A DNA stretch of 64,000 bases from a virus (Duplodnaviria; Caudoviricetes), in IMG/VR virus record IMGVR_UViG_3300020112_000486, positions 6,651 through 70,650 of that record. One strand, given 5' to 3'. A program made the position numbers and the translations under genes. The notes under the pieces are model-generated. The model was not told the DNA's origin, made no database searches, and was given only the letters and a program-made list of their open reading frames with translations. Position 1 is the stretch's first letter; each line of letters starts with the position of its first letter. Below are positions 1,984 through 55,309 of this stretch, piece by piece.

Positions 1984-2458
1984 AATGCAATTAAATGAGG
2001 CAATACAGATTCTTGAGGCTAATGGATTTGGCGCTGAAATTTCAAATAAGCGTTTGAGAAAAATGCTTAATGATGCCGGCTATTCCGATGTGCATCTTAT
2101 CAAAGGCGATGGTTATCTTTATGTAGACGCTGATGATGCACAACATCAGGACTGGTTGAACGCTTTGGACAGCACATCAATTTATCTCAATTCATTTAAT
2201 CAGCAGTCACCTGAAGAATGGTTCCAGGACATTATCATGATGCTTCGTAAAGGCCGTAATGCTTACATTGAAAAGCACCCTGACGGACCTGAAGATGTAA
2301 ATGAAGATTTTGGTATTGGCGTAGGCGGTATGACTGGCGCTGACCAAGGTATTCCAATGGGTGGTGACTGCAAAGCCGTTGTAGCAAAAAGAATGGACGG
2401 TGGAACACCTGCTTGCCGTTTTCGCAGAAGAATCAAGAAAAGAAGAAAAGCTAAGTAA
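1970..2458 (+). CDS. Putative internal head protein: leader tag + copy of the MCP N-arm + basic tail
   Basis: N-terminal LNEAIQILEANGF leader; NEDFGIGVGGMTGADQGIPMGGDCKAV matches the MCP at 62432-62512; ends RFRRRIKKRRKAK. Confidence 0.65.
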   Translation: MSHIKMQLNEAIQILEANGFGAEISNKRLRKMLNDAGYSDVHLIKGDGYLYVDADDAQHQDWLNALDSTSIYLNSFNQQSPEEWFQDIIMMLRKGRNAYIEKHPDGPEDVNEDFGIGVGGMTGADQGIPMGGDCKAVVAKRMDGGTPACRFRRRIKKRRKAK

Positions 2459-2943
2459 TGAACGAAGATTTTGAAAGAACAAGCGAAGTTGTAAACGGCT
2501 ATTTTTATACATACGCTTATAAAGCAACAAGCGCAGATCCAGCATACGATAGACTGCCGTTTATTTACTGCTTAGCCCCACATCCTAAAAGTCAGAATTG
2601 TTTCATTGGCATAAATCTTCACCATTTACCAACCAGTGAACGAATAGATTTTCTTGTTGAACTTGAAAGGCTATATCACATATTGGATAATGAAGAACGA
2701 GCCATTGTAGATATTGATGTTATTAGACGAACGATGCCTTCAGCCAAGCTTGCCTTGCGTGTTTATAACAGAAAAAATGTTAGCCGTTGCTATCGTGTTT
2801 TAAATAAAGCGGTTGGCAGATACATAGACAATGATGGCGATATTTACTTGGCTGAACCATCAACTATTATGAACAAGTATTGGACAAACTATGCTGGCGC
2901 TAAATCCGCCAAATCTCAGGAGCCTGAACAAAAGGAAGAGTAA
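2458..2943 (+). CDS. gp2: DNA end protector protein (T4 gp2-like)
   Basis: GYFYTYAY...YDRLPFIYCL...FIGINLHHLP matches the gp2 pattern (YD.FPL...GLNLHYLP). Confidence 0.75.
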   Translation: MNEDFERTSEVVNGYFYTYAYKATSADPAYDRLPFIYCLAPHPKSQNCFIGINLHHLPTSERIDFLVELERLYHILDNEERAIVDIDVIRRTMPSAKLALRVYNRKNVSRCYRVLNKAVGRYIDNDGDIYLAEPSTIMNKYWTNYAGAKSAKSQEPEQKEE

Positions 2944-2947
2944 TCGT

Positions 2948-3223
2948 TTGAATTACGGCTTAATTTATCATACACTGATTAGCCGCGCACAAACTCGAGA
3001 CGAATACATACCATATACCGAGCAGCATCACATACTGCCTCGGTCAGAAGGTGGATCTAATAAAAAATCAAATAAGGTGGAGCTTACGCCCAAAGAGCAT
3101 CACCTATGCCATTTGTGCTTAATAAGAATGGGCATGTGCTTAAAGTATTGTTTTAGACATTTGAATATCCGCGAGTATTGCGAAATGAAATACCAAGAAA
3201 AGAAAAAGAAGCATCTCATCTGA
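2948..3223 (+). CDS. Short free-standing HNH endonuclease (possibly a truncated remnant)
   Basis: (M)NYGLIYHTLISRA...EQHHILPRSEGGSNKKSNKVELTPKEHHLCH is the HNH homing endonuclease motif; probable TTG start at 2948; no C-terminal DNA-binding domain. Confidence 0.8.
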   Translation: MNYGLIYHTLISRAQTRDEYIPYTEQHHILPRSEGGSNKKSNKVELTPKEHHLCHLCLIRMGMCLKYCFRHLNIREYCEMKYQEKKKKHLI

Positions 3224-3228
3224 TTTTT

Positions 3229-3324
3229 GTTGCGGACAGATAGTTTACCCGCTATTTGCTGTTGCTTCCAACTGCAGCTAACGCAACTTTATAAATATAT
3301 TAGACGTATTTGGAAGATGCGTCT
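3229..3324 (+). promoter_or_regulatory. Hairpin module A + late promoter TATAAATA (3290-3297) + hairpin B
   Basis: GGACA-AGATAG/CTATTT stem, GCTG..CTTCCAA..CAGC, CTAAC, promoter, then stem 3302-3309/3317-3324 with loop TTGGAAG. Confidence 0.65.
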
Positions 3325-3344
3325 TAAAATAAAGCGAGGGTAAG

Positions 3345-4229
3345 ATGACATACAACATCTATAAATGTATTGTATGTGGCAAAGATTGTCACAACATTGG
3401 CAAACATATAGCCAAGCATGGTTTAACACCACAAGAGTATTATGATAAATTTTTAAAAACGGGCAATGAAGGAATCTGTCCCGTTTGTGGTGCGGAAACC
3501 AAATTTAAGAAAATTACACAAGGATATGCAGCATATTGCTGTTTTGAACATTTCCGTATTTCAGATTTAGTTAAAGAACACCGTAAAAACACAAATTTGG
3601 AAAAATTTGGTGTTGAAAATTGTTTTCAGTCGCATGAATGCATGCAAAAGGCTGATGAAACGAAACTGTTAAAATATGGTGATGCAAAATTTAGAAACGA
3701 AGTGAAAATACGAGAAACCTGTTTAACAAAGTATGGTTTTGAAAATCCTGCACAATCTGAAATGGTGAAACAGAAAATAAATGATAGCATGATAAAACAT
3801 TTTGGCTGTCATAACTCGCAGGATCCTGAATGTCGTAAACGCATGCGTACCAGATATACATATGAAAACATAAAATTTGATAGTTCATATGAAATAGCAT
3901 TTTATATCTGGAATAAAGATCATGGCATAAATGTTGAAAGATGCTATGATTCGTTTGAATACGAAGTAAACAGAAAAATACACAAATACTTTCCTGATTT
4001 TAAAATCAATGATTCATATTATGAAATAAAAGGAGAACATTTAATTACACAAGATAGGCAACATTTAATAGATCCACATAAACATAGCATAACTGATGAA
4101 ACAGAAGCCAAAATGCAATGCATTAGAAAAAATAACATTGAAATAGTTGATAAAGACAAAATAATTTTTTATATTAAATATGTTAAGCAAAAATATGGGC
4201 AAAACTATATAAAGCAATTTAAAAAATAA
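3345..4229 (+). CDS. Free-standing homing-endonuclease-like protein (Zn-ribbon, TxLxKYG repeats, PD-(D/E)xK nuclease)
   Basis: CxxC..H..H/CxxCG N-terminus, repeated T.L.K[FY]G, C-terminal FDSSYE...YFPDFKINDSYYEIKG. Confidence 0.75.
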   Translation: MTYNIYKCIVCGKDCHNIGKHIAKHGLTPQEYYDKFLKTGNEGICPVCGAETKFKKITQGYAAYCCFEHFRISDLVKEHRKNTNLEKFGVENCFQSHECMQKADETKLLKYGDAKFRNEVKIRETCLTKYGFENPAQSEMVKQKINDSMIKHFGCHNSQDPECRKRMRTRYTYENIKFDSSYEIAFYIWNKDHGINVERCYDSFEYEVNRKIHKYFPDFKINDSYYEIKGEHLITQDRQHLIDPHKHSITDETEAKMQCIRKNNIEIVDKDKIIFYIKYVKQKYGQNYIKQFKK

Positions 4230-4238
4230 AGGAACAAC

Positions 4239-6122
4239 ATGAGTAAAGCTTATGATGCTAGTGCGATTGACGTACTAAACGGTTTAACCGCAATAAGAAA
4301 GCGCCCTGACATGTATGTAGGCGCTACATCAGGCGACCCTGCTGCTGCGCTATACAGAATCTTGAGGGAAGCTATTGATAATTCTCTTGATGAATACCTT
4401 GGAGGATTTAACAAACAGTTGTATGTCTTTTATAACACACAGACATTTGAAACAACTGTACTTGATAATGGTCGTGGCATTCCGGTAGGTTGGAATGAAA
4501 AGGCTGGCATGGACGCATTAACCGCTGTTGTATCTCAGGTTCATGCTGGCGGTAAATTTGACCACGATGTGTATAAGACATCATCAGGTAAAAACGGCGT
4601 AGGTATCACTGCGCTCAATGCACTTTCTAAACGCTTGCAGGTTTGGTCAAACAACAGCAAGGGCAAAAAGTGGTATACACAGGTTTTTGAAAAGGGTGAA
4701 ATTAAATCAGAAGTTCTTCACAATGATCCGCCTAAGGAATTGAAGAGCTTAATTTCCACCACAGGTACAATTTTAAGATGGACACCTGACCCAACAATTT
4801 TCACAGATAGCTGCCGTCTTGATGTTGCCCGTTTGAAACACGAGCTTCATGACATTCAGTATCTGTGTCCATTCTTGCACATTCATATGATCATTGACGG
4901 TGAAGAAATTGAATTCTTCTCTGAAGATGGACTTGGTGAACTTGTCGCAAAGAATCCGACTGACGATTGCATCTTTTCTTATTCAGATGAATTTACCGAT
5001 GTAGCATTGAATTTTACAAAGGGCGATGGAACAACATTTAAGTCCTATGTGAATATCTGTTACACAAATCTTGGTGGTACACATCTTGATGGTTTGAAGA
5101 AGGCTATCACGAATGTTGTCAAGGATAATTCAAAACAGAAGATTACCAATGACGATATTCTTGAAGGTGTAATTGGTGCCATTCATCATCGCATGGCTGA
5201 ACCTCAATATCAGGGACAGACAAAGAACGAACTTACTAATTCCGAAGTTGAAAAGGAAATCATTGACAAGATGACACCTGCTTTGGAAAAGTTCTTCAAG
5301 AAGAACAAAGATGTTTTGAAGCGTATTGTTGAGTACGCTGAAAAGATGCTTGAACAAAGAAATAAGATGAAGGCATCTAAGGACTTGTTGAAAGGTCTTA
5401 AGACACTTAACGCATCCGCAAACAGAATCTCTGACAAATTCCTTGACGCTGACCGCCGTAAGTTCAAGAATCCAAAGGATTTGGAAATGTTCATTGTTGA
5501 AGGTGACTCCGCAGGCGGTCACTTTAAACAGGCTCGTGAAGGTTTCCAAGGCGAACTTAAGATCCGCGGTAAAATCATTAACGCTGCGAAAGCAAATCCT
5601 GAAGACTTGTTTGGCAAGCCGGGCAAGAAGGACGGAAAAGACGGTAACCGCGAAATCAAGGATCTTGTAGCTGCTTTAGGTTGCGGCGTTGGTGAAAATT
5701 ATGATGAAGCAAAACTTCGCTTCAACAAGGTTATTATTCTATCTGACGCCGATGTTGATGGACAACATATTGCTAACCTTTGTTTGGCATTCTTTATCAA
5801 CTATATGCCGGATCTTGTAAAGAACGGACATGTCTATATCATTGATGCACCGTTGTTTATTGCCACATCTGCAAAGCACAAAGTATTTGGTATGACTCGT
5901 GCTGAAGTTGATAATCAGATGAAGAAACTGAAATGTTCAGATTATACCGTTACACGGCTTAAAGGTTGGGGTGAAACTTCCGCTGAACAGTTGAGTGAAC
6001 TATGTCTAAATCCGAAGACAAGAAAACTCATTCAGATTAAATGGACTGACGCTACTGAAAAGATGTGCGAATCTACAATGGGTGGCGATGTTGCATTCCG
6101 TAAGGAACTGCTCGGAATTTAA
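4239..6122 (+). CDS. Type IIA DNA topoisomerase, ATPase/TOPRIM subunit (GyrB/ParE-like; T4 gp39+60 equivalent)
   Basis: RKRPDMY, EAIDNSLDE, DNGRGIP, HAGGKF, SGKNGVG, VEGDSAGG, DADVDGQHI, RLKGWGE. Confidence 0.95.
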   Translation: MSKAYDASAIDVLNGLTAIRKRPDMYVGATSGDPAAALYRILREAIDNSLDEYLGGFNKQLYVFYNTQTFETTVLDNGRGIPVGWNEKAGMDALTAVVSQVHAGGKFDHDVYKTSSGKNGVGITALNALSKRLQVWSNNSKGKKWYTQVFEKGEIKSEVLHNDPPKELKSLISTTGTILRWTPDPTIFTDSCRLDVARLKHELHDIQYLCPFLHIHMIIDGEEIEFFSEDGLGELVAKNPTDDCIFSYSDEFTDVALNFTKGDGTTFKSYVNICYTNLGGTHLDGLKKAITNVVKDNSKQKITNDDILEGVIGAIHHRMAEPQYQGQTKNELTNSEVEKEIIDKMTPALEKFFKKNKDVLKRIVEYAEKMLEQRNKMKASKDLLKGLKTLNASANRISDKFLDADRRKFKNPKDLEMFIVEGDSAGGHFKQAREGFQGELKIRGKIINAAKANPEDLFGKPGKKDGKDGNREIKDLVAALGCGVGENYDEAKLRFNKVIILSDADVDGQHIANLCLAFFINYMPDLVKNGHVYIIDAPLFIATSAKHKVFGMTRAEVDNQMKKLKCSDYTVTRLKGWGETSAEQLSELCLNPKTRKLIQIKWTDATEKMCESTMGGDVAFRKELLGI

Positions 6123-6354: not shown

Positions 6355-6729
6355 ATGAACAGAGGTGATTTTATAAGCAAGATCTTACGCCGTTATGCGG
6401 CGTTTTATGACGAAAGACCATGTCCGATTGAATACAGGTCAGTCGCTATGCAATTTAACTGGAGGTGGGATACTTTGTTTGCTAATAAACCGTTGTTTAC
6501 AGCAGACAGTATTTTATATGACTATTCGTCGCTGCTTGACATGGAAGTTAACAGAGAGAACTATGAAAAGTTCTTGCGTGATCCGTGCATGGGTGTCAAA
6601 GCATTTGAAATAAGCAAAGTCTCGTATAGTAAAGCTGAAGAAATCATGCTGCGTAATTTACAAGCACACGAAAGATTTGAAAAGCTACTCGCAAAAGCAG
6701 AAACAATTAAATCAATCATGGAGGAATAA
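6355..6729 (+). CDS. Hypothetical protein
   Basis: 124-aa ORF directly after a sigma70 promoter, translationally coupled to the topoisomerase A subunit. Confidence 0.6.
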   Translation: MNRGDFISKILRRYAAFYDERPCPIEYRSVAMQFNWRWDTLFANKPLFTADSILYDYSSLLDMEVNRENYEKFLRDPCMGVKAFEISKVSYSKAEEIMLRNLQAHERFEKLLAKAETIKSIMEE

Positions 6730-24116: not shown

Positions 24117-24986
24117 ATGATGAATTTTAAAGATCCGCGTCCTGTGCCGCCATCTCCGGCTCCATACGATCCTAAGCGTCAGCCGGATCCACAGCCAGGC
24201 AATTATTGTGCAGCCCAAGATGGCTTTATGGCTGCTCATCGTATTCAGAATGTAGCTGAACTGCGTGCTTATATCAAAAGACAGCTTGGTTCTCCTGTTA
24301 TTTGTGTTGAAATTTCTGACGAACAGCTAGATGATGTTATCCGCGATACTGTTCAGTATATTCAGCGCTATTATCTAGGTCAGGGTAATTACAGCGATTA
24401 CCTTATTATGGAATTGCAGCCAGGTGTTTCCAAGTATAAATTGTGTCAGGAATTAGAGTCAGTTGTTGACTTCAAGACTTCCAATTATTTTGGCGGCATT
24501 AACGAACTTTTCACCGTTCCGCATGCTTTGCTATATGACCAGGTTATGGGCATGAACTGCTGGCAGGGTAACTGCTTTGGTAACTCAGCTTCCTATGGTA
24601 ACATTTTGGGTAACTGGAAGGCAACCTTGACATGGCTTGCTGAAGCTGACGAAATGTTTGGTGAACATTATGTTGTTCGCTACAATGAAAAAGAAAAAGA
24701 GCTTGAAGTTATGCCTCCGCCAAAAACACCAGTTAAGGGTATGCTGAAGGTTTACAAGCGTCAGCGTTCAGAAAAGATTTTCAATGACTGGATGTTCAAA
24801 AGAATGGTTGTTGCTGCTGCAGGTATGGTATGGACCAACGCCCTTAGAAAATATCAGTTAGCAATTTCTGGTGGTGGTTCCTTGAACGCTGACTCACTTT
24901 ATACAACATACAAAGAAAACTGGGATTGGTGCGTGGAACACATTGAACTTGAAAGTCCTAATGGGCATTGTTTCGCCGTCGGCTGA
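24117..24986 (+). CDS. gp13: Neck protein (T4 gp13-like)
   Basis: LRAYIKRQLGSPVICVEISDEQLDDVI...WTNALRKY...GGGSLNA. Confidence 0.85.
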   Translation: MMNFKDPRPVPPSPAPYDPKRQPDPQPGNYCAAQDGFMAAHRIQNVAELRAYIKRQLGSPVICVEISDEQLDDVIRDTVQYIQRYYLGQGNYSDYLIMELQPGVSKYKLCQELESVVDFKTSNYFGGINELFTVPHALLYDQVMGMNCWQGNCFGNSASYGNILGNWKATLTWLAEADEMFGEHYVVRYNEKEKELEVMPPPKTPVKGMLKVYKRQRSEKIFNDWMFKRMVVAAAGMVWTNALRKYQLAISGGGSLNADSLYTTYKENWDWCVEHIELESPNGHCFAVG

Positions 24987-25023
24987 TTTTTTGATGCTAA
25001 CTTTATCATATTTTTGTATCCTT

Positions 25024-25057
25024 TATAAATAAATTAGACGAACTGGTAATTCGTCTA
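25024..25057 (+). promoter_or_regulatory. Late promoter + hairpin B (loop CTGGTAA)
   Basis: TATAAATA 25024-25031; TAGACGAA/TTCGTCTA perfect 8-bp stem. Confidence 0.7.
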
Positions 25058-25067
25058 TAAATAAAGG

Positions 25068-26093
25068 ATGCAAAACATGGGTAAAAATGTAGATTTTATT
25101 ATAGCAGTCAAGTCACAAGCTGACTTGACTTTTGCGAAAACAACATACAGTAATAAAACAAAAATTCTCGTTCATTGTTCTGATTGTAATATACCGCTTT
25201 TAAAAGCGCTGAAGAAAATTGATAAAAATGATACTTTAGACGATTTGCGGTGTAGACGCTGTGGTATAAGACACGCTGTGTTTCAAAAATATGGCTGCGT
25301 AAATGTTTTTCAGTTAGCAACAGTAAAAAATAAGTCAAAAGAAACATCATTTCAAAACTGTGGTTTTGAATATGCGTCACAGTCACCCGAGTTCCGAGCA
25401 AATGTAAAAAATACATGTATGCGGAAATACGGTGTTGAAAACATTACTCAATCTGAATTTTTTAAAGAAAAAGCACGTGAAACTAGACTTTTGAAAAATG
25501 AAGGACAATATAGGAACAAAACTGAAATAGAAAAACAGCAAGAAACCTGCCTTAGTAAATATGGCACAAAAGCGTGCTGGAATTTACCAGAAGTTAGAAA
25601 GACACAAAAAGCTACATTTCTCGCAAGATACGGCAAAACTCATTTTTTACATACAGAAAAATATATTGATGTAATGACTGAGAAATATGGTGTAAGTAAT
25701 CCTGATTATTCGCATGAAATTAGAACAAAAATGCGACAAAAGTATCTGTATAAAAACGTCGGATTTGATAGCAGCTGGGAATTAGCACTTTATATTTGGT
25801 TAGAAGATTCATCCGTGCCGTTTATATACCAACCACCTGGTATATCATACATGCATAATAATGAGCCGCATACTTATTATCCTGATTTTTTACTAGCCGA
25901 TGATACTTATATAGAAATAAAAAATCCTGCATTATTATTGAGGATGCAAAATGAAACATCACTAGAACATTCAAAATACCTATGTATGATTAACAACAAT
26001 GTACAAATTATATCAAACTGTGATGAATATCTTAAATATGTTACCCATAAATATGGTAAGAATTATCTAAAAAGTTTTAAAAAGGACAAGTAG
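25068..26093 (+). CDS. Free-standing homing-endonuclease-like protein (TxLxKYG repeats + PD-(D/E)xK nuclease)
   Basis: Repeats TCMRKYGV/TCLSKYG/TFLARYG; FDSSWELALYIW...YYPDFLL...YIEIK; C-terminus KYGKNYLKSFK shared with 3345. Confidence 0.75.
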   Translation: MQNMGKNVDFIIAVKSQADLTFAKTTYSNKTKILVHCSDCNIPLLKALKKIDKNDTLDDLRCRRCGIRHAVFQKYGCVNVFQLATVKNKSKETSFQNCGFEYASQSPEFRANVKNTCMRKYGVENITQSEFFKEKARETRLLKNEGQYRNKTEIEKQQETCLSKYGTKACWNLPEVRKTQKATFLARYGKTHFLHTEKYIDVMTEKYGVSNPDYSHEIRTKMRQKYLYKNVGFDSSWELALYIWLEDSSVPFIYQPPGISYMHNNEPHTYYPDFLLADDTYIEIKNPALLLRMQNETSLEHSKYLCMINNNVQIISNCDEYLKYVTHKYGKNYLKSFKKDK

Positions 26094-26154
26094 GTTTACA
26101 TGTTTTGCCTACCTGGAGACTCTTTACCAGAGAGTCTCCTAACTTTTATAAATA
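26084..26154 (+). promoter_or_regulatory. Hairpin module A (loop TTACCAG) + late promoter
   Basis: GGACA-GTAGG/CCTAC stem, GGAGACTCT/AGAGTCTCC stem, CTAAC, TATAAATA 26147-26154. Confidence 0.7.
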
Positions 26155-26158
26155 TGAT

Positions 26159-26824
26159 ATGGATGGTAAAATGCTATTATCTGAAGCAAATCAAATACTT
26201 AATTCGGCTGGGTATAGCCTTATCTGTGAGGAGTTTGAAAAGGTAACTCCTGAAATCCTAGATAAGGTTACTCAGCGTGTTTCTGACCATATTACTCGTG
26301 TTAAGCATTTCTATAATGTGTTGCTTAATAGTAATATGATTCCTGCTGAATACAAAAATACAGCAAGCGTAATGAAACATGACCGAGACAAGCTAGATCC
26401 GCGTAATCTTAAAAGACAAGCATTGCGTTACTGCTATACTGAAGAAGAAATGACACCTGAAATTAAGCATGAAATTAACGCAGTGGTTCATGAACACGTA
26501 ACTGCTAATAAGCATCACGCTGAATACTGGTGGTCAGGTGACTGGAAAGACAGGAATCAAGACTGTACATCAATGCCGCTTGAATACATTTATGAAATGA
26601 TGGCTGATTGGGCTGCTACTGCGGAAGAGCGTGGAACCTCGTTAGTCAAATGGTATAAAGACGGCGTAGTTAATGTTGGCGGTGTTCATTGGAAATTTAC
26701 TGATGAGGCTGCTGCTGAAATTGCTAAATGCGTCAATTTCCTTAAAGACAAAATTGACCCATCAATGAAAAGAAACTATGGGCTAACACAAATCGCATCA
26801 TTGACGGCGATGTTAGCTAAATAA
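26159..26824 (+). CDS. HD-like (DUF5662-type) protein with leader tag
   Basis: LLSEANQILNSAGY leader; H..RV, KHDRDK, HEH...KHHAEYW, MPLEYIYEMMADW. Confidence 0.6.
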   Translation: MDGKMLLSEANQILNSAGYSLICEEFEKVTPEILDKVTQRVSDHITRVKHFYNVLLNSNMIPAEYKNTASVMKHDRDKLDPRNLKRQALRYCYTEEEMTPEIKHEINAVVHEHVTANKHHAEYWWSGDWKDRNQDCTSMPLEYIYEMMADWAATAEERGTSLVKWYKDGVVNVGGVHWKFTDEAAAEIAKCVNFLKDKIDPSMKRNYGLTQIASLTAMLAK

Positions 26825-31783: not shown

Positions 31784-31819
31784 TATAAATAAAAGGTAGG
31801 GCCGGTACGCCCTACCTTT
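31784..31819 (+). promoter_or_regulatory. Late promoter + perfect 10-bp hairpin
   Basis: TATAAATA then AAAGGTAGGG-CCGGTACG-CCCTACCTTT. Confidence 0.65.
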
Positions 31820-31844
31820 ACTATTATATATCGTTGGAGGATAT

Positions 31845-33734
31845 ATGACAGCTGAATTATTTATATGTAAGATATGCAATAGTCGCGTTGGCTATAAAGG
31901 TGCTTGTTCGCACCTTAAAATACATGGTCTAACTGTACAACAGTATTATGACCAATATGAGAACCCTGTTAAAATATGTTCATGTGGCGCTGATGTAAAA
32001 TTTATATCATTGCGGGAAGGCTATGCTAAACTCTGTACTAAATGTGCTAGAAGACAAGCAAAAGAAAAATCAGAACAAACACAATTACAGAAATACGGTG
32101 TTAAACATTTTTCAAATCCAGAAAAGACAGCTAAAACGAAATTAAAAAAATATGGGAATGCTGGATATAGTAATACTGAAAAACGTAAAAGAACATGTTT
32201 ACAGAAATATGGAACCGAATTCCCATCACAAAATGAAGAAATTAAATTAAAGATTAAATCCACTAACATAGACAAATACGGTGGAATAGGTTTTTCTTCA
32301 AATATGTTAGCCGAAAAAGTTCAAGCCACCTGCGTTGAAAAATATGGTGTTGATAACTTTTCAAAAACCAACACATTTAAAGACAATCTTAAATTGCATA
32401 ATTTAGAAAAATATGGGGTGGAACATTACTTTCAGACTGTTGAGTGTAAAGAAAAAACAAAGCAGAATAATTTAGAAAAGTATGGAGTAGAGCATTACTT
32501 TCAGTCAAAAGAATGTGAAGAAAAATTACGTGCAAAACTTGACGGTAAACGCGGTGCCGCTTCTATTGCTGTTCAGGACGCAATGAAACAAACATGTCTA
32601 TCTAAATACGGTGTAGAACATCCAATGCAGCTACATGAAATATCAAGCAGATGTCATCACAAGTATTCGTTTGATGGAAAGATGTTTGATAGTGCATGGG
32701 AACTAATTTACTACATCTGGCTAAAAGATCATAACATAAGTTTTGTGTTTCAACCTAAAGCATCATTCACCTATACATTTAATAGCAAAGAACATACATA
32801 CAACCCAGATTTTTTAGTTGAAGGAAACTATATTGAATTAAAGGGTTTACAATTCTTTAATAATAAGAACATAAACGAAAAAATGATAAATCCTTTTGAC
32901 AGATCATTAGACGATCTATATGAAGCTAAACATCAATGCATGTTAGCTAATGGCGTGAAAATCATATCTGATATAAGTGAATATGAAAAGTATGTTAATA
33001 CCACATATACACCTGATTTTATTCATTTATTTAAAACCGATGTTGAATTTCCATATCCAAATAATGAAATTATTAAGCGGTTTCATCATAGCATTTATAC
33101 TGCACATGTAGGCAATAAACCTTCGCCCGTTGAAGCATGGCAAAATAAAGACTTAGTTTATAAAACAGCGCTTAACCGTTTAAAATATGTTAAGCGCTGT
33201 AAGCCATCTGACATAGTACAAGGATTTAATGTTAGCAAAATAGCTCCTAAAGTTTCAGTTTTTAAACGATCAGTAGCAAAACACATCGTAGAAACTTATC
33301 TTTCCGAATTTCATACTGTGTTTGACCCATTTAGTGGATTCAGCGGTAGAATGTTAGGCGTTACTGATTGTGAAAAACGTTACATTGGACAAGACATTAA
33401 CGAAACGCATGTAAAAGAAAGCAATGAAATCATTAAAACATTTGGCTTAAACGCCACTGTTATATGTAAAGACATTTTTGAAAGCGAAGGCGAGTATGAA
33501 AGTATGTTTACATGTAGTCCGTATCATTTAAAAGAAATCTGGAACGAAAATGAAACTGATATGAGCTGTGATGAATGGATTGATGAATGCCTTAAACGTT
33601 TTAAATGTAAACGATATGTGTTCGTGGTTGATGAAACTGAAAAATATAAAGATAAAATTGTTGAAACAATCACCAATGAAAGCCATTTTGGAAAAAATAA
33701 TGAATATGTTATTGTGATAGAGCAAATGAACTAA
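31845..33734 (+). CDS. Zn-ribbon/repeat/PD-(D/E)xK nuclease fused to a DNA amino-methyltransferase-like domain
   Basis: Many TxLxKYG repeats; FDSAWE...YNPDFLV...YIELKG; then VFDPFSGFSGR, YIGQDIN, FTCSPY. Confidence 0.7.
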   Translation: MTAELFICKICNSRVGYKGACSHLKIHGLTVQQYYDQYENPVKICSCGADVKFISLREGYAKLCTKCARRQAKEKSEQTQLQKYGVKHFSNPEKTAKTKLKKYGNAGYSNTEKRKRTCLQKYGTEFPSQNEEIKLKIKSTNIDKYGGIGFSSNMLAEKVQATCVEKYGVDNFSKTNTFKDNLKLHNLEKYGVEHYFQTVECKEKTKQNNLEKYGVEHYFQSKECEEKLRAKLDGKRGAASIAVQDAMKQTCLSKYGVEHPMQLHEISSRCHHKYSFDGKMFDSAWELIYYIWLKDHNISFVFQPKASFTYTFNSKEHTYNPDFLVEGNYIELKGLQFFNNKNINEKMINPFDRSLDDLYEAKHQCMLANGVKIISDISEYEKYVNTTYTPDFIHLFKTDVEFPYPNNEIIKRFHHSIYTAHVGNKPSPVEAWQNKDLVYKTALNRLKYVKRCKPSDIVQGFNVSKIAPKVSVFKRSVAKHIVETYLSEFHTVFDPFSGFSGRMLGVTDCEKRYIGQDINETHVKESNEIIKTFGLNATVICKDIFESEGEYESMFTCSPYHLKEIWNENETDMSCDEWIDECLKRFKCKRYVFVVDETEKYKDKIVETITNESHFGKNNEYVIVIEQMN

Positions 33735-41957: not shown

Positions 41958-42240
41958 AGCCGTTTCCTCGGAACGAAACTCAACCCAATGACGCTGTCGG
42001 TAGAGGGACGCCATTTGAGCTAGAATTGCTTAGCTCGTGAATAGAAATGCAAATGCAATAGCGAAGTGGAAACTAGCCCTTTCCACACATAGCCGCCAAT
42101 AGCATTATGGGATGTAGCCGGAATACAGGTTGACCGCTCCGTAAGCCCATAAGTGAGTCTACTTACAACGTCATACGGTTCACCAGTCAAAACAAAGACT
42201 CGGAATTTCTGACGGTAAGCTCTACCGGGCTTACTGTCTC
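41958..42240 (+). ncRNA. Putative structured non-coding RNA, class unknown
   Basis: No + strand ORF in the track; many complementary segments, including long-range and pseudoknot pairings (see findings). Confidence 0.55.
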
Positions 42241-54106: not shown

Positions 54107-54114
54107 TTAACAAA

Positions 54115-54201
54115 GGACAGATAGGCTACTACCCCTATTTGGCGTGCTGTTGCCTCAGCACGCCTAACTTTTATAAATATCAAAATGGTAGGCAAACCAT
54201 T
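54115..54201 (+). promoter_or_regulatory. Hairpin module A (loop TTGCCT) + late promoter + hairpin B (loop AGGCAA)
   Basis: GGACA-AGATAGG/CCTATTT; GGCGTGCTG/CAGCACGCC; CTAAC; TATAAATA 54172-54179; AATGGT/ACCATT. Confidence 0.75.
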
Positions 54202-54217
54202 AAATGAAGGTAGTAAT

Positions 54218-55309
54218 ATGATACAAGAAATATGTCTTGAATGCGGGCAAATTGCTGTATTAAATAAGCATGTTAGAAAACATGGCTTAACATCCGAAGA
54301 GTATTACAGAAAATGGCTAATGAAACCAAATGAAGGTTTCTGTAAAGTATGCGGTAAACCAACAAAGTTTTGTGGCTTATCTGAAAAATGTTTTCAACCA
54401 TACTGTAGTAATAAATGTCATAATAATGATGCTGAATACTTAGCTGACCGTAGCGAAAAACGCAAAAATCTTTCACCCGAAGCAAAGGCCGCTATTCGTG
54501 CCAAACAGATTAAAACTTGGGAAACAACTATGGGCAATGATTGGGCAAAGATTATGGCACATAACGGTTTTGAAACTTATAAGAAACGTACAGGCTATGA
54601 TACACCGTGGCATGATCCGGCAGTAAAACAAAAATGCCGTGAAAGATGGAATAATGAAAATTCGCCGGCATGTTTAGCTGATGTTAAAGAAAAGATTTCA
54701 AAAAGTACCAAGACTTATTTTGATGAAACCAAAGAAGAACGCATTGCTTTACAGTTAAAACATTTACAAGAAAAGTGTAAAGACTTGATAGCTATTGACG
54801 GCAATTGGAAAATTTACAAATGTCCGAACTGTGGCGCTGAAACAAAAATAGGATCTAAGGCTATTGGAACTGCTGTTAAATATAATGATTTTAATCATTT
54901 ATGCAGCAAGTGCCATTGCATGAATGGCACATCATTTAAGGAACAGGAACTGATATCATTTTTAAAAACATTTGACGAAACTATTATAGAACATGATAGA
55001 ACTATTTTAGCAGGTAAAGAGCTAGACGCGTATATGCCAAATTTAAATGTAGCATTCGAGTTTGATGGTACTTATTGGCATGCCGATCCGCGATTTTTTA
55101 ATGAAGACGCGATTATGCGTTATAATCATGATGGATCACCTTTAACTGCTGGAATGATTTGGACCTATGATAATGAAAAAACTTTACTATGCCAAACAAA
55201 AAATATCAAGCTAATACGCATACAAGAATATGATTGGATAAATAATCGTGAATATATAAAAAACAAAATCAGTGAGGTTATTAACAATGTTAAATGCAAC
55301 AACGAATGA
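54218..55309 (+). CDS. Free-standing Vsr/EDxHD-like homing endonuclease with Zn-ribbons
   Basis: CLECG..H..KHGLTSEEYY..CKVCGKPTKF; SFKEQE...GKELDAYMP..VAFEFDGTYWHAD...LIRIQEYDW; probable start ATG 54218. Confidence 0.8.
   Translation: MIQEICLECGQIAVLNKHVRKHGLTSEEYYRKWLMKPNEGFCKVCGKPTKFCGLSEKCFQPYCSNKCHNNDAEYLADRSEKRKNLSPEAKAAIRAKQIKTWETTMGNDWAKIMAHNGFETYKKRTGYDTPWHDPAVKQKCRERWNNENSPACLADVKEKISKSTKTYFDETKEERIALQLKHLQEKCKDLIAIDGNWKIYKCPNCGAETKIGSKAIGTAVKYNDFNHLCSKCHCMNGTSFKEQELISFLKTFDETIIEHDRTILAGKELDAYMPNLNVAFEFDGTYWHADPRFFNEDAIMRYNHDGSPLTAGMIWTYDNEKTLLCQTKNIKLIRIQEYDWINNREYIKNKISEVINNVKCNNE

Follow-up and report, generated by a model that had tools for sequence, protein, structure and literature searches.

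The stretch of DNA analysed in this study (hereafter the window, 64,000 nt) covers positions 6,651 to 70,650 of the virus record IMGVR_UViG_3300020112_000486 and carries three free-standing homing endonuclease genes (HEGs), each associated with a two-part RNA element made up of a structured module A and a hairpin B. All window coordinates given below refer to the plus strand. The source record is a 70,650-nt IMG/VR entry that is 21% complete by the CheckV estimate. Its major capsid protein is gp23-like, with about 31% identity to gp23 of cyanomyoviruses, and the T4-type late-promoter box TATAAATA was found 22 times against 4.8 expected, 20 of these on the coding strand and mostly directly 5' of the starts of open reading frames (ORFs). 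Because of the capsid protein and the enriched boxes, the record was read as T4-like. Related contigs were 105-185 kb long yet only 31-54% complete, and the record probably represents a distant, jumbo T4-like phage. By analogy with T4, TATAAATA is taken to be a working late promoter here.

Module A was resolved as a three-way junction that reads P0, GAC, P1, P2, UAA and P0' from 5' to 3', with TATAAATA directly 3' of it. The outer helix P0 is mostly AAAG/CUUU and its 3' strand is the T-run right before the promoter. The hairpins P1 and P2 abut without a linker, and the base of P1 is formed by a conserved A-U and a G.U pair. Isolated A sequences folded into this three-way junction in ViennaRNA. 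Two covariance models were built, R1 for the whole cassette and R2 for module A alone, and in the whole 70,650-nt record R2 found exactly three A copies (E 5e-17 to 1e-9) and none elsewhere. A first-pass annotation, made from the sequence of the window alone, had placed three copies with GGACA starts at 3234, 26084 and 54115, and these positions were confirmed. The boxes GGACA and CTAAC by which it had delimited the module are parts of P0 (AAAG/CUUU) and of the junction strands GAC and UAA, and the lone G that it had set between two stems is the first base of P2; the outer helix itself had been missed.

At locus 1, module A occupies positions 3229-3287 (R2 44.5 bits, E 3e-9), and its minimum free energy (MFE) fold gave the junction. 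P0 is GUUGCG/CGCAAC (3229-3234 with 3282-3287), and this compensated helix accounts for the odd CTAAC-GCAAC insertion at this locus. The junction strands GAC (3235-3237) and UAA (3279-3281) enclose P1 (3238-3243 with 3252-3257; loop 3244-3251, holding UUACCC at 3245-3250) and P2 (3258-3264 with 3272-3278; loop CUUCCAA, 3265-3271). A local GTTG/CAAC stem, which the first-pass annotation had flagged as overlapping CTTCCAA, proved to be another possible register; in the one consistent with the family, CTTCCAA is an unpaired loop of 7 nt. The late-promoter box (3290-3297) lies between A and B. Hairpin B (3302-3309 with 3317-3324) presents the loop UUGGAAG (3310-3316), the exact complement of the P2 loop, and the start region of the gene (3338-3347, AUG at 3345) contains GGGUAA (3338-3343), which complements UUACCC of the P1 loop. 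HEG1 (3345-4229, 294 aa) combines a zinc-finger N-terminus with a DUF7487/PD-(D/E)XK-like nuclease; the C-terminal nuclease is also present in HEG2 (35% identity), and the N-terminal zinc finger recurs in HEG3 (28%). Directly 5' of this cassette lies a 110-aa ORF (2891-3223) whose similarity to HNH homing endonucleases (PHROG 655, E 1e-21) is confined to their N-terminal part; it looks like a truncated nuclease gene.

Locus 3 has the same order of parts. Its module A (54112-54171, R2 70.7 bits) consists of P0 (54112-54115 with 54168-54171), the junction strands GAC (54116-54118) and UAA (54165-54167), P1 (54119-54125 with 54134-54140; loop CUACUACC, 54126-54133) and P2 (54141-54149 with 54156-54164; loop UUGCCU, 54150-54155). 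The late promoter (54172-54179) is followed by hairpin B (54184-54189 with 54196-54201; loop AGGCAA, 54190-54195) and by the start region GGUAGUA (54209-54215), complementary to the P1 loop CUACUACC, with the AUG at 54218. HEG3 (54218-55309, 363 aa) matches the homing-endonuclease families PHROG 3339/559 and carries a ROS/MucR-like zinc finger. Near-identical DNA was present in 20 sequencing runs, and one RNA-library contig bridges 53949-55667, including A, promoter, B and HEG3. Being contigs, these data cannot show transcript ends, strand or transcription, and they were not used as support.

To collect relatives, a pattern was derived from the conserved ends of the module. It gave 47 IMG/VR, 53 JGI and 15 GTDB stretches, of which roughly one in two was a true homologue, and pattern and covariance models together led to about 40 distinct copies on contigs of rumen and gut T4-like phages from these three collections. 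Every intact copy precedes an endonuclease-like gene, either HNH (PHROG 655) or DUF7487/PHROG 3339 with PD-(D/E)XK- or Vsr-like ends; all downstream genes tested were HEG-like and belonged to at least two nuclease families. The position of the B hairpins just 5' of nuclease ORFs, which the first-pass annotation had pointed out at the three loci, thus held for the window genes, with their DUF7487 and/or PHROG homing-endonuclease matches, and the nuclease association extended to the homologues. Of the 51 DUF7487 loci surveyed in IMG/VR, no more than about 10 had a module A, in all cases upstream, so the module is clade-specific and not a general trait of DUF7487 nucleases.

Within this family GAC and UAA, the junction strands, hardly vary (a few copies have UUA instead of UAA), and atypical outer helices are compensated, as in GUUGCG/CGCAAC, AUGCAGG/CCUGCAU, AAAUCGG/CCGAUUU, ACAG/CUGU, AAGAAG/CUUCUU and UAUGAAG/CUUCAUA. 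In a plain MAFFT alignment, made with no fitting to structure, 93.4% of the cells were paired and 165 double changes were counted, and slid registers gave 39-57%. The model-fitted alignment, which leans toward the model, gave 99.2% and 204; none of 500 shuffles reached the values of either alignment, and slid registers over both remained at 32-57%. By these alignment and shuffle tests all three stems covary, P0 and P2 as well as P1, for which co-variation had already been noticed among the window copies. A TATAAA that is frequent just 5' of GGACAG was considered as a weak promoter for a small A RNA, but makes more sense as a longer P0 in which it pairs with UUUAUA of the promoter; it is absent from all three window copies.

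The two hairpin loops of module A were compared with their putative targets in 28 non-redundant cassettes. Since loop registers shift by 1 nt between copies, a register-free test for exact complements with permuted partners was chosen, in which the P2 apex was matched against the 38 nt that follow the promoter. Between P2 loop and B loop, the longest exact complement had a mean of 6.75 nt in cognate pairs and 3.87 nt in permuted ones (0 of 20,000 permutations; 22 different loop words), and the match falls in the loop of hairpin B, whose stem measures 5-10 bp. Exact P2/B complements of at least 6 nt occurred in 93% of the cognate and 4% of the non-cognate pairs (28-29 non-redundant cassettes). 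The second contact, missed in the first-pass annotation, links the P1 loop to the Shine-Dalgarno (SD) sequence, the spacer and often the AUG of the nuclease gene; here the mean was 7.39 nt against 4.32 nt for permuted partners (0 of 20,000; 27 words, n = 28). In the window, cognate matches amount to 6-7 nt for P2/B and 6-10 nt for P1/start region, and cross-locus matches to 5 nt at most, so that the exact and locus-specific loop complements proposed earlier for all three loci were borne out, as was their covariation in the wider family. Compensation was also visible between the close relatives L173, L175 and L178, with P1-loop/start-region pairs ACCACACC/GGUGUGGU, ACCACUCC/GGAGUGGU and AUCACUCC/GGAGUGAU. 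A further pairing, of AAAGGAC with the 3' arm of B (GUCUUU), was rejected, because B stems of the GACU type do not pair and no covariation was found.

At loci 1 and 3, as in about 35 homologous cassettes, TATAAATA stands between module A and the translation start, and B begins 4-5 nt after the box; locus 2 has a different arrangement. In nested-only folding, the mean probability that the SD word is unpaired was 0.16 in read-through RNA; it rose to 0.66 when the RNA began 6 nt 3' of TATAAATA (Wilcoxon p = 8e-7, n = 28).

These observations argue for a cis-acting RNA lock on the translation of free-standing HEGs in uncultured, probably jumbo, T4-like phages of rumen and gut, a reading to which we assign a probability of roughly 0.78. 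Direct observation covers the sequences, the covariation of the stems and of the two contacts, the place of the promoter box and the link to HEGs. The contacts would form in the RNA and block 30S binding, the P2 loop (6-7 nt) kissing the loop of hairpin B and the P1 loop (6-10 nt) pairing with SD, spacer and often AUG. As the anti-SD sequence is the loop of P1, whose stem covaries, this second contact would be a pseudoknot or a loop-strand pairing. In the standard layout of loci 1 and 3, read-through transcripts from upstream genes carry A and would be locked, while transcripts from TATAAATA would start at the foot of B, lack A and offer a free ribosome-binding site (RBS). In such late transcripts B probably stays as a 5'-terminal stabilising hairpin. 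P2 followed by UAAC-U(3-5) may also be a leaky terminator for upstream transcription; P2 passed a loose terminator scan at loci 2 and 3, but UAAC separates the stem from only 3-5 U. The idea of a kissing-loop switch with A confined to read-through transcripts, already raised in the first-pass annotation, agrees with loci 1 and 3, where the loops covary and TATAAATA lies between A and B, but not with locus 2, where A is found at the 3' end of the nuclease mRNA.

The order at locus 2 is promoter, B, HEG2 and A, with A about 1 kb downstream of B. The late promoter (25024-25031) is followed by hairpin B (25035-25042 with 25050-25057; loop CUGGUAA, 25043-25049), which lies within a weak R1 match (24960-25079), by the SD AAGGA (25064-25068) and by the start region CAAAACAUG (25071-25079, AUG at 25077), which complements the P1 loop UUUACAUGUUUUG. 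A long local hairpin also spans this region (25012-25075; UCCUUUAU with AUAAAGGA; dG -23 kcal/mol, z -5.9). This plain hairpin covers the SD in read-through RNA, and locus 2 is the sole locus with such a simple SD hairpin. A second TATAAATA at 25056-25063, on the 3' side of the hairpin, is a product of the palindrome around B; a start from this box would give a leader without SD, and it is therefore probably unused.

HEG2 (25077-26093, 338 aa) encodes a DUF7487 nuclease and is flanked by a gp13-like gene (24117-24986) on one side and the gp21 protease region on the other; the gp13 and gp21 context (PF26809, PF03420) was also found at orthologous loci. The reading frame of HEG2 ends with UAG (26091-26093), a stop codon contained in the 5' strand of P1 of module A (26080-26147, R2 63.6 bits; the MFE fold of A alone gave the junction). 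The module comprises P0 (26080-26084 with 26143-26147), the strands GAC (26085-26087) and UAA (26140-26142), P1 (26088-26094 with 26108-26114; loop UUUACAUGUUUUG, 26095-26107), with an A.C mismatch where the family has G.U, and P2 (26115-26123 with 26131-26139; loop UUACCAG, 26124-26130), the exact complement of the B loop. The unconstrained MFE fold of the 1114-nt HEG2 mRNA paired 25065-25078 with 26100-26114. The late promoter of the next gene follows at 26147-26154. The start of this gene, which encodes a DUF5662 protein (AUG at 26171), is abutted by UGGUAAA (26164-26170), an exact complement of the P2 loop of this module A, and one of the relatives described below (L172) has GGUAA at the matching place. 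Module A of locus 2 might thus also touch the start of the downstream gene, or the match might be due to chance.

A search for related loci with HEG2 alone found none, and relatives were reached via protein searches. Two of them, L116 and L172, occupy the same site between gp13 and gp21 and have the same permuted order of promoter, B, HEG and A (52% identity between the nucleases of L116 and HEG2, 57% between those of L172 and L116). In both, the stop codon falls inside the P1 loop and the P2 loop UUACCAG complements the B loop CUGGUAA, so that A overlaps the HEG stop codon in all three permuted loci. Their P0, P1 and P2 stems all differ from those of locus 2. The P1 loop nevertheless tracks its own start region about 1 kb upstream, with UUUACAUGUUUUG/CAAAACAUG in the window, UUUAGCUAAUU/AAUUAGCUA in L116 and CUAGCUAAU/AUUAGCU in L172. 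Other orthologues at the HEG2 site (L173-L178) have the standard order, and in L172 a plain terminator-like hairpin, AAAGGACGGU...ACCGUCCUUU, stands at the usual place of A. The recurrence of the permuted order, with a 3' module A that covaries with the 5' start region, is what seems new here.

In the permuted layout A would bridge about 1 kb to reach B and the start region by folding back, and as it overlaps the HEG stop, every mRNA of full length would have a lock of its own at its 3' end. The arrangement suggests a fold-back lock resembling that of hok mRNA, in which the 3' fbi element pairs with the 5' tac element; in MS2, a long-distance interaction closes the replicase start. As in these systems, a 3' element would pair with a 5' start across a whole ORF whose product is potentially harmful. 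The hok pairing is one linear 5'-3' helix, whereas the permuted form would make two separate contacts from a junction. Activation would also differ, since hok is activated by 3' trimming, while the stop codon inside the 3' element suggests re-opening by terminating ribosomes: as termination falls inside P1, translating ribosomes would open the lock transiently.

The same arrangement bears on the possibility that A acts in trans, as the stable 3' end of a transcript that stops at P2 and then binds late HEG mRNAs, with private loops against cross-talk. The antisense RNA would derive from the mRNA of the upstream gene in the standard layout or from the HEG mRNA itself in the permuted one, and a kissing loop would make the first contact. 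As the permuted form shows, A and B need not be adjacent, and in every layout A ends just before the T-run and promoter, where it could be a 3' terminus. P2 followed by UAACUUUU passed the loose terminator scan; the T-run, however, lies 4 nt from P2, so termination may be weak. Loop words differ within a single record, both in the window with its cross-locus matches of at most 5 nt and in L026, L018 and L080, which hold two cassettes apiece; such diversity could equally come from drift with compensation. Fully complementary loops of 6-7 nt are typical of bimolecular antisense recognition. In the kissing-loop antisense systems ColE1 RNAI/RNAII and R1 CopA/CopT, they form the recognition step between opposite-strand RNAs acting in trans, whereas A and B come from one strand, usually from a stretch of 110 nt or less, and complementarity is confined to the loops. 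About 35 of 40 copies have A, B and SD together on one strand in a span of some 110 nt, a distance at which a contact within the molecule would outcompete one in trans. We regard a trans-acting antisense role as unlikely. More tentatively, and at somewhat less than even odds, the element may be a portable, addressable lock that acts at a distance, with the permuted mRNA closed from 5' to 3' and re-opened by each terminating ribosome, so that it would be translatable only while translated; such a lock could also act in trans, and private loop words would then prevent cross-talk within the genome.

The history of the cassettes raises a further alternative, namely that they are mainly DNA-level recombination units whose conserved ends, AAAGGACAG and CTAACTTTTTATAAATA, serve as short homologies, the RNA pairings being secondary. 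In L003 (10160-10960) the 3' end of gp13 is repeated after the forward HEG, the duplicate running exactly to GGACAGAT (GGACAGAU), and a reverse-oriented zinc-finger HEG follows. L033 (760-1190) represents the same site with A and promoter and without B or HEG, and this orphan is better read as a site that has lost both. The duplicate and the loss mark the gp13-gp21 gap as a hot spot of nuclease gain and loss. Locus 2 is itself flanked by late-promoter repeats and circularly permuted with respect to same-site orthologues, an order that may have arisen via duplication and subsequent deletion or via a circular intermediate, neither of which explains the address loops. In T4-type phages, the PeSL cassettes, composite terminator/promoter motifs with an early sigma-70-type promoter and one terminator stem-loop, mediate modular shuffling (PMC2839356, PMC4122927). 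The present cassettes likewise join a conserved stem-loop and a promoter in a unit that flanks variable genes, and their borders appear to behave as recombination points in a manner that resembles PeSL-mediated shuffling. They differ in the late promoter TATAAATA and the gene-specific address loops, and a promoter scan found no good sigma-70 match associated with the element; PeSLs are not known to carry complements of a downstream RBS. Recombination accounts neither for two loops that track the B loop and the RBS through dozens of words nor for three covarying stems in which only the junction bases are fixed, and late promoters elsewhere in the window occur without CTAAC. That DNA-level exchange is the main role seems very improbable to us. 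The related suggestion of DNA hairpin ends of a mobile element, made in the first-pass annotation, found no support, and the complementarity to the RBS argues for a role at the RNA level.

Several points weigh against the cis-acting lock. All evidence for it is comparative or thermodynamic, and covariation counts are inflated by related sequences and by the one alignment that was fitted to the model. The P1 stem and the pairing of the P1 loop with the SD are incompatible in a nested fold and need a pseudoknot or an exchange between two states; by our own estimate, which was not computed, the stacked geometry of P1 on P2 looks strained where the spacer between B and SD is short. Two cassette types (L030, L057) have loop-loop complements of only 4-5 nt. 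B is missing from three to four orphan A copies (L033, L043, L133), and a search up to 0.9-1.9 kb upstream of those in L033 and L043 found no partner hairpin or start region. In two further cassettes (L012:187-305, L035:9799-9915) the B loop pairs with the P1 loop instead of the P2 loop (CGCC/GGCG and UACCAC/GUGGUA), so the assignment of addresses can be swapped. Genes upstream of locus 3 also have late promoters, and the lock therefore cannot be purely an early/late timer there; it probably shields the nuclease from abundant polycistronic mRNA and does more than time its synthesis.

Nor does a lock alone explain why the strands GAC and UAA are invariant and why a G.U pair is conserved at the foot of P1. 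That the junction strands and the A-U and G.U pairs hardly vary, while the stems do, speaks for another reading, in which the junction is a previously undescribed self-cleaving ribozyme, a site of RNase processing or one of protein binding, and the loop contacts do no more than position it. The conserved core is very small, however, and such a site predicts none of the complementarity to the SD. In a comparison of the window and six related loci with Rfam 15 at the gathering score, no family matched the elements, all known ribozyme classes included, and at E values up to 10 the elements themselves gave chance-level matches only. The ribozyme or processing signal considered in the first-pass annotation is not favoured by this outcome, and we hold a catalytic, processing or protein-binding role of the junction to be extremely improbable.

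The Rfam comparison also gave a full-length match to the cow-rumen-2 RNA (RF02947) in an intergenic region of the window (42060-42165, 105.6 bits against a gathering score of 66), which places this orphan motif in the genome of a T4-like phage. Elsewhere, a nuclease-like gene (31845-33734) is preceded by a late promoter and then a strong 5' hairpin, AAGGUAGGGC...GCCCUACCUU (31784-31850), without a module A; B-like 5' hairpins hence also exist without the lock. A tRNA scan of the window gave zero tRNAs, and a megablast search of positions 2000-6000 against sequenced phage genomes gave no match.

In T-even phages, a late promoter that bypasses an RBS-sequestering structure has been described for I-TevI, I-TevII, I-TevIII, segB, Aeh1 mobE and the genes e, soc and 49, the embedded promoter being of late or middle type (PMC2988022, PMC3014915). 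The cassettes described here share with these structures the gene class, homing endonucleases of T4-like phages, and the proposed principle, by which a long read-through RNA hides SD and AUG while TATAAATA inside the structure gives rise to a shorter RNA with a free RBS. In the T-even cases a simple local hairpin takes up the SD as one of its arms, whereas here the anti-SD sequence would be the loop of a junction arm and a second arm would kiss the separate hairpin B. Moreover, the present elements form one recognisable sequence family across unrelated nuclease families and also occur in a 3'-located form. On our best reading, then, the logic of the lock is of the known T4 kind and the hardware differs, being a junction that presents a kissing loop on one arm and an anti-SD loop on another; our literature search found no paper that combines these features.

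Homing endonucleases must stay quiet if the phage is to tolerate them, and the answer of the T-even phages is a simple RBS hairpin. In the phages considered here, a compact and conserved RNA device without an entry in Rfam 15 would serve the same goal. Its covarying address loops, spread over dozens of natural variants, amount to a ready-made mutagenesis series, and the occurrence of the lock in front of the gene or behind it at one and the same site is a natural experiment on action over a whole reading frame. The combination of junction, kissing loop and anti-SD loop is a small design that is potentially reusable as a modular translational switch. For the uncultured jumbo T4-like phages themselves, the element provides a sequence signature by which free-standing endonuclease genes and late promoters may be recognised.

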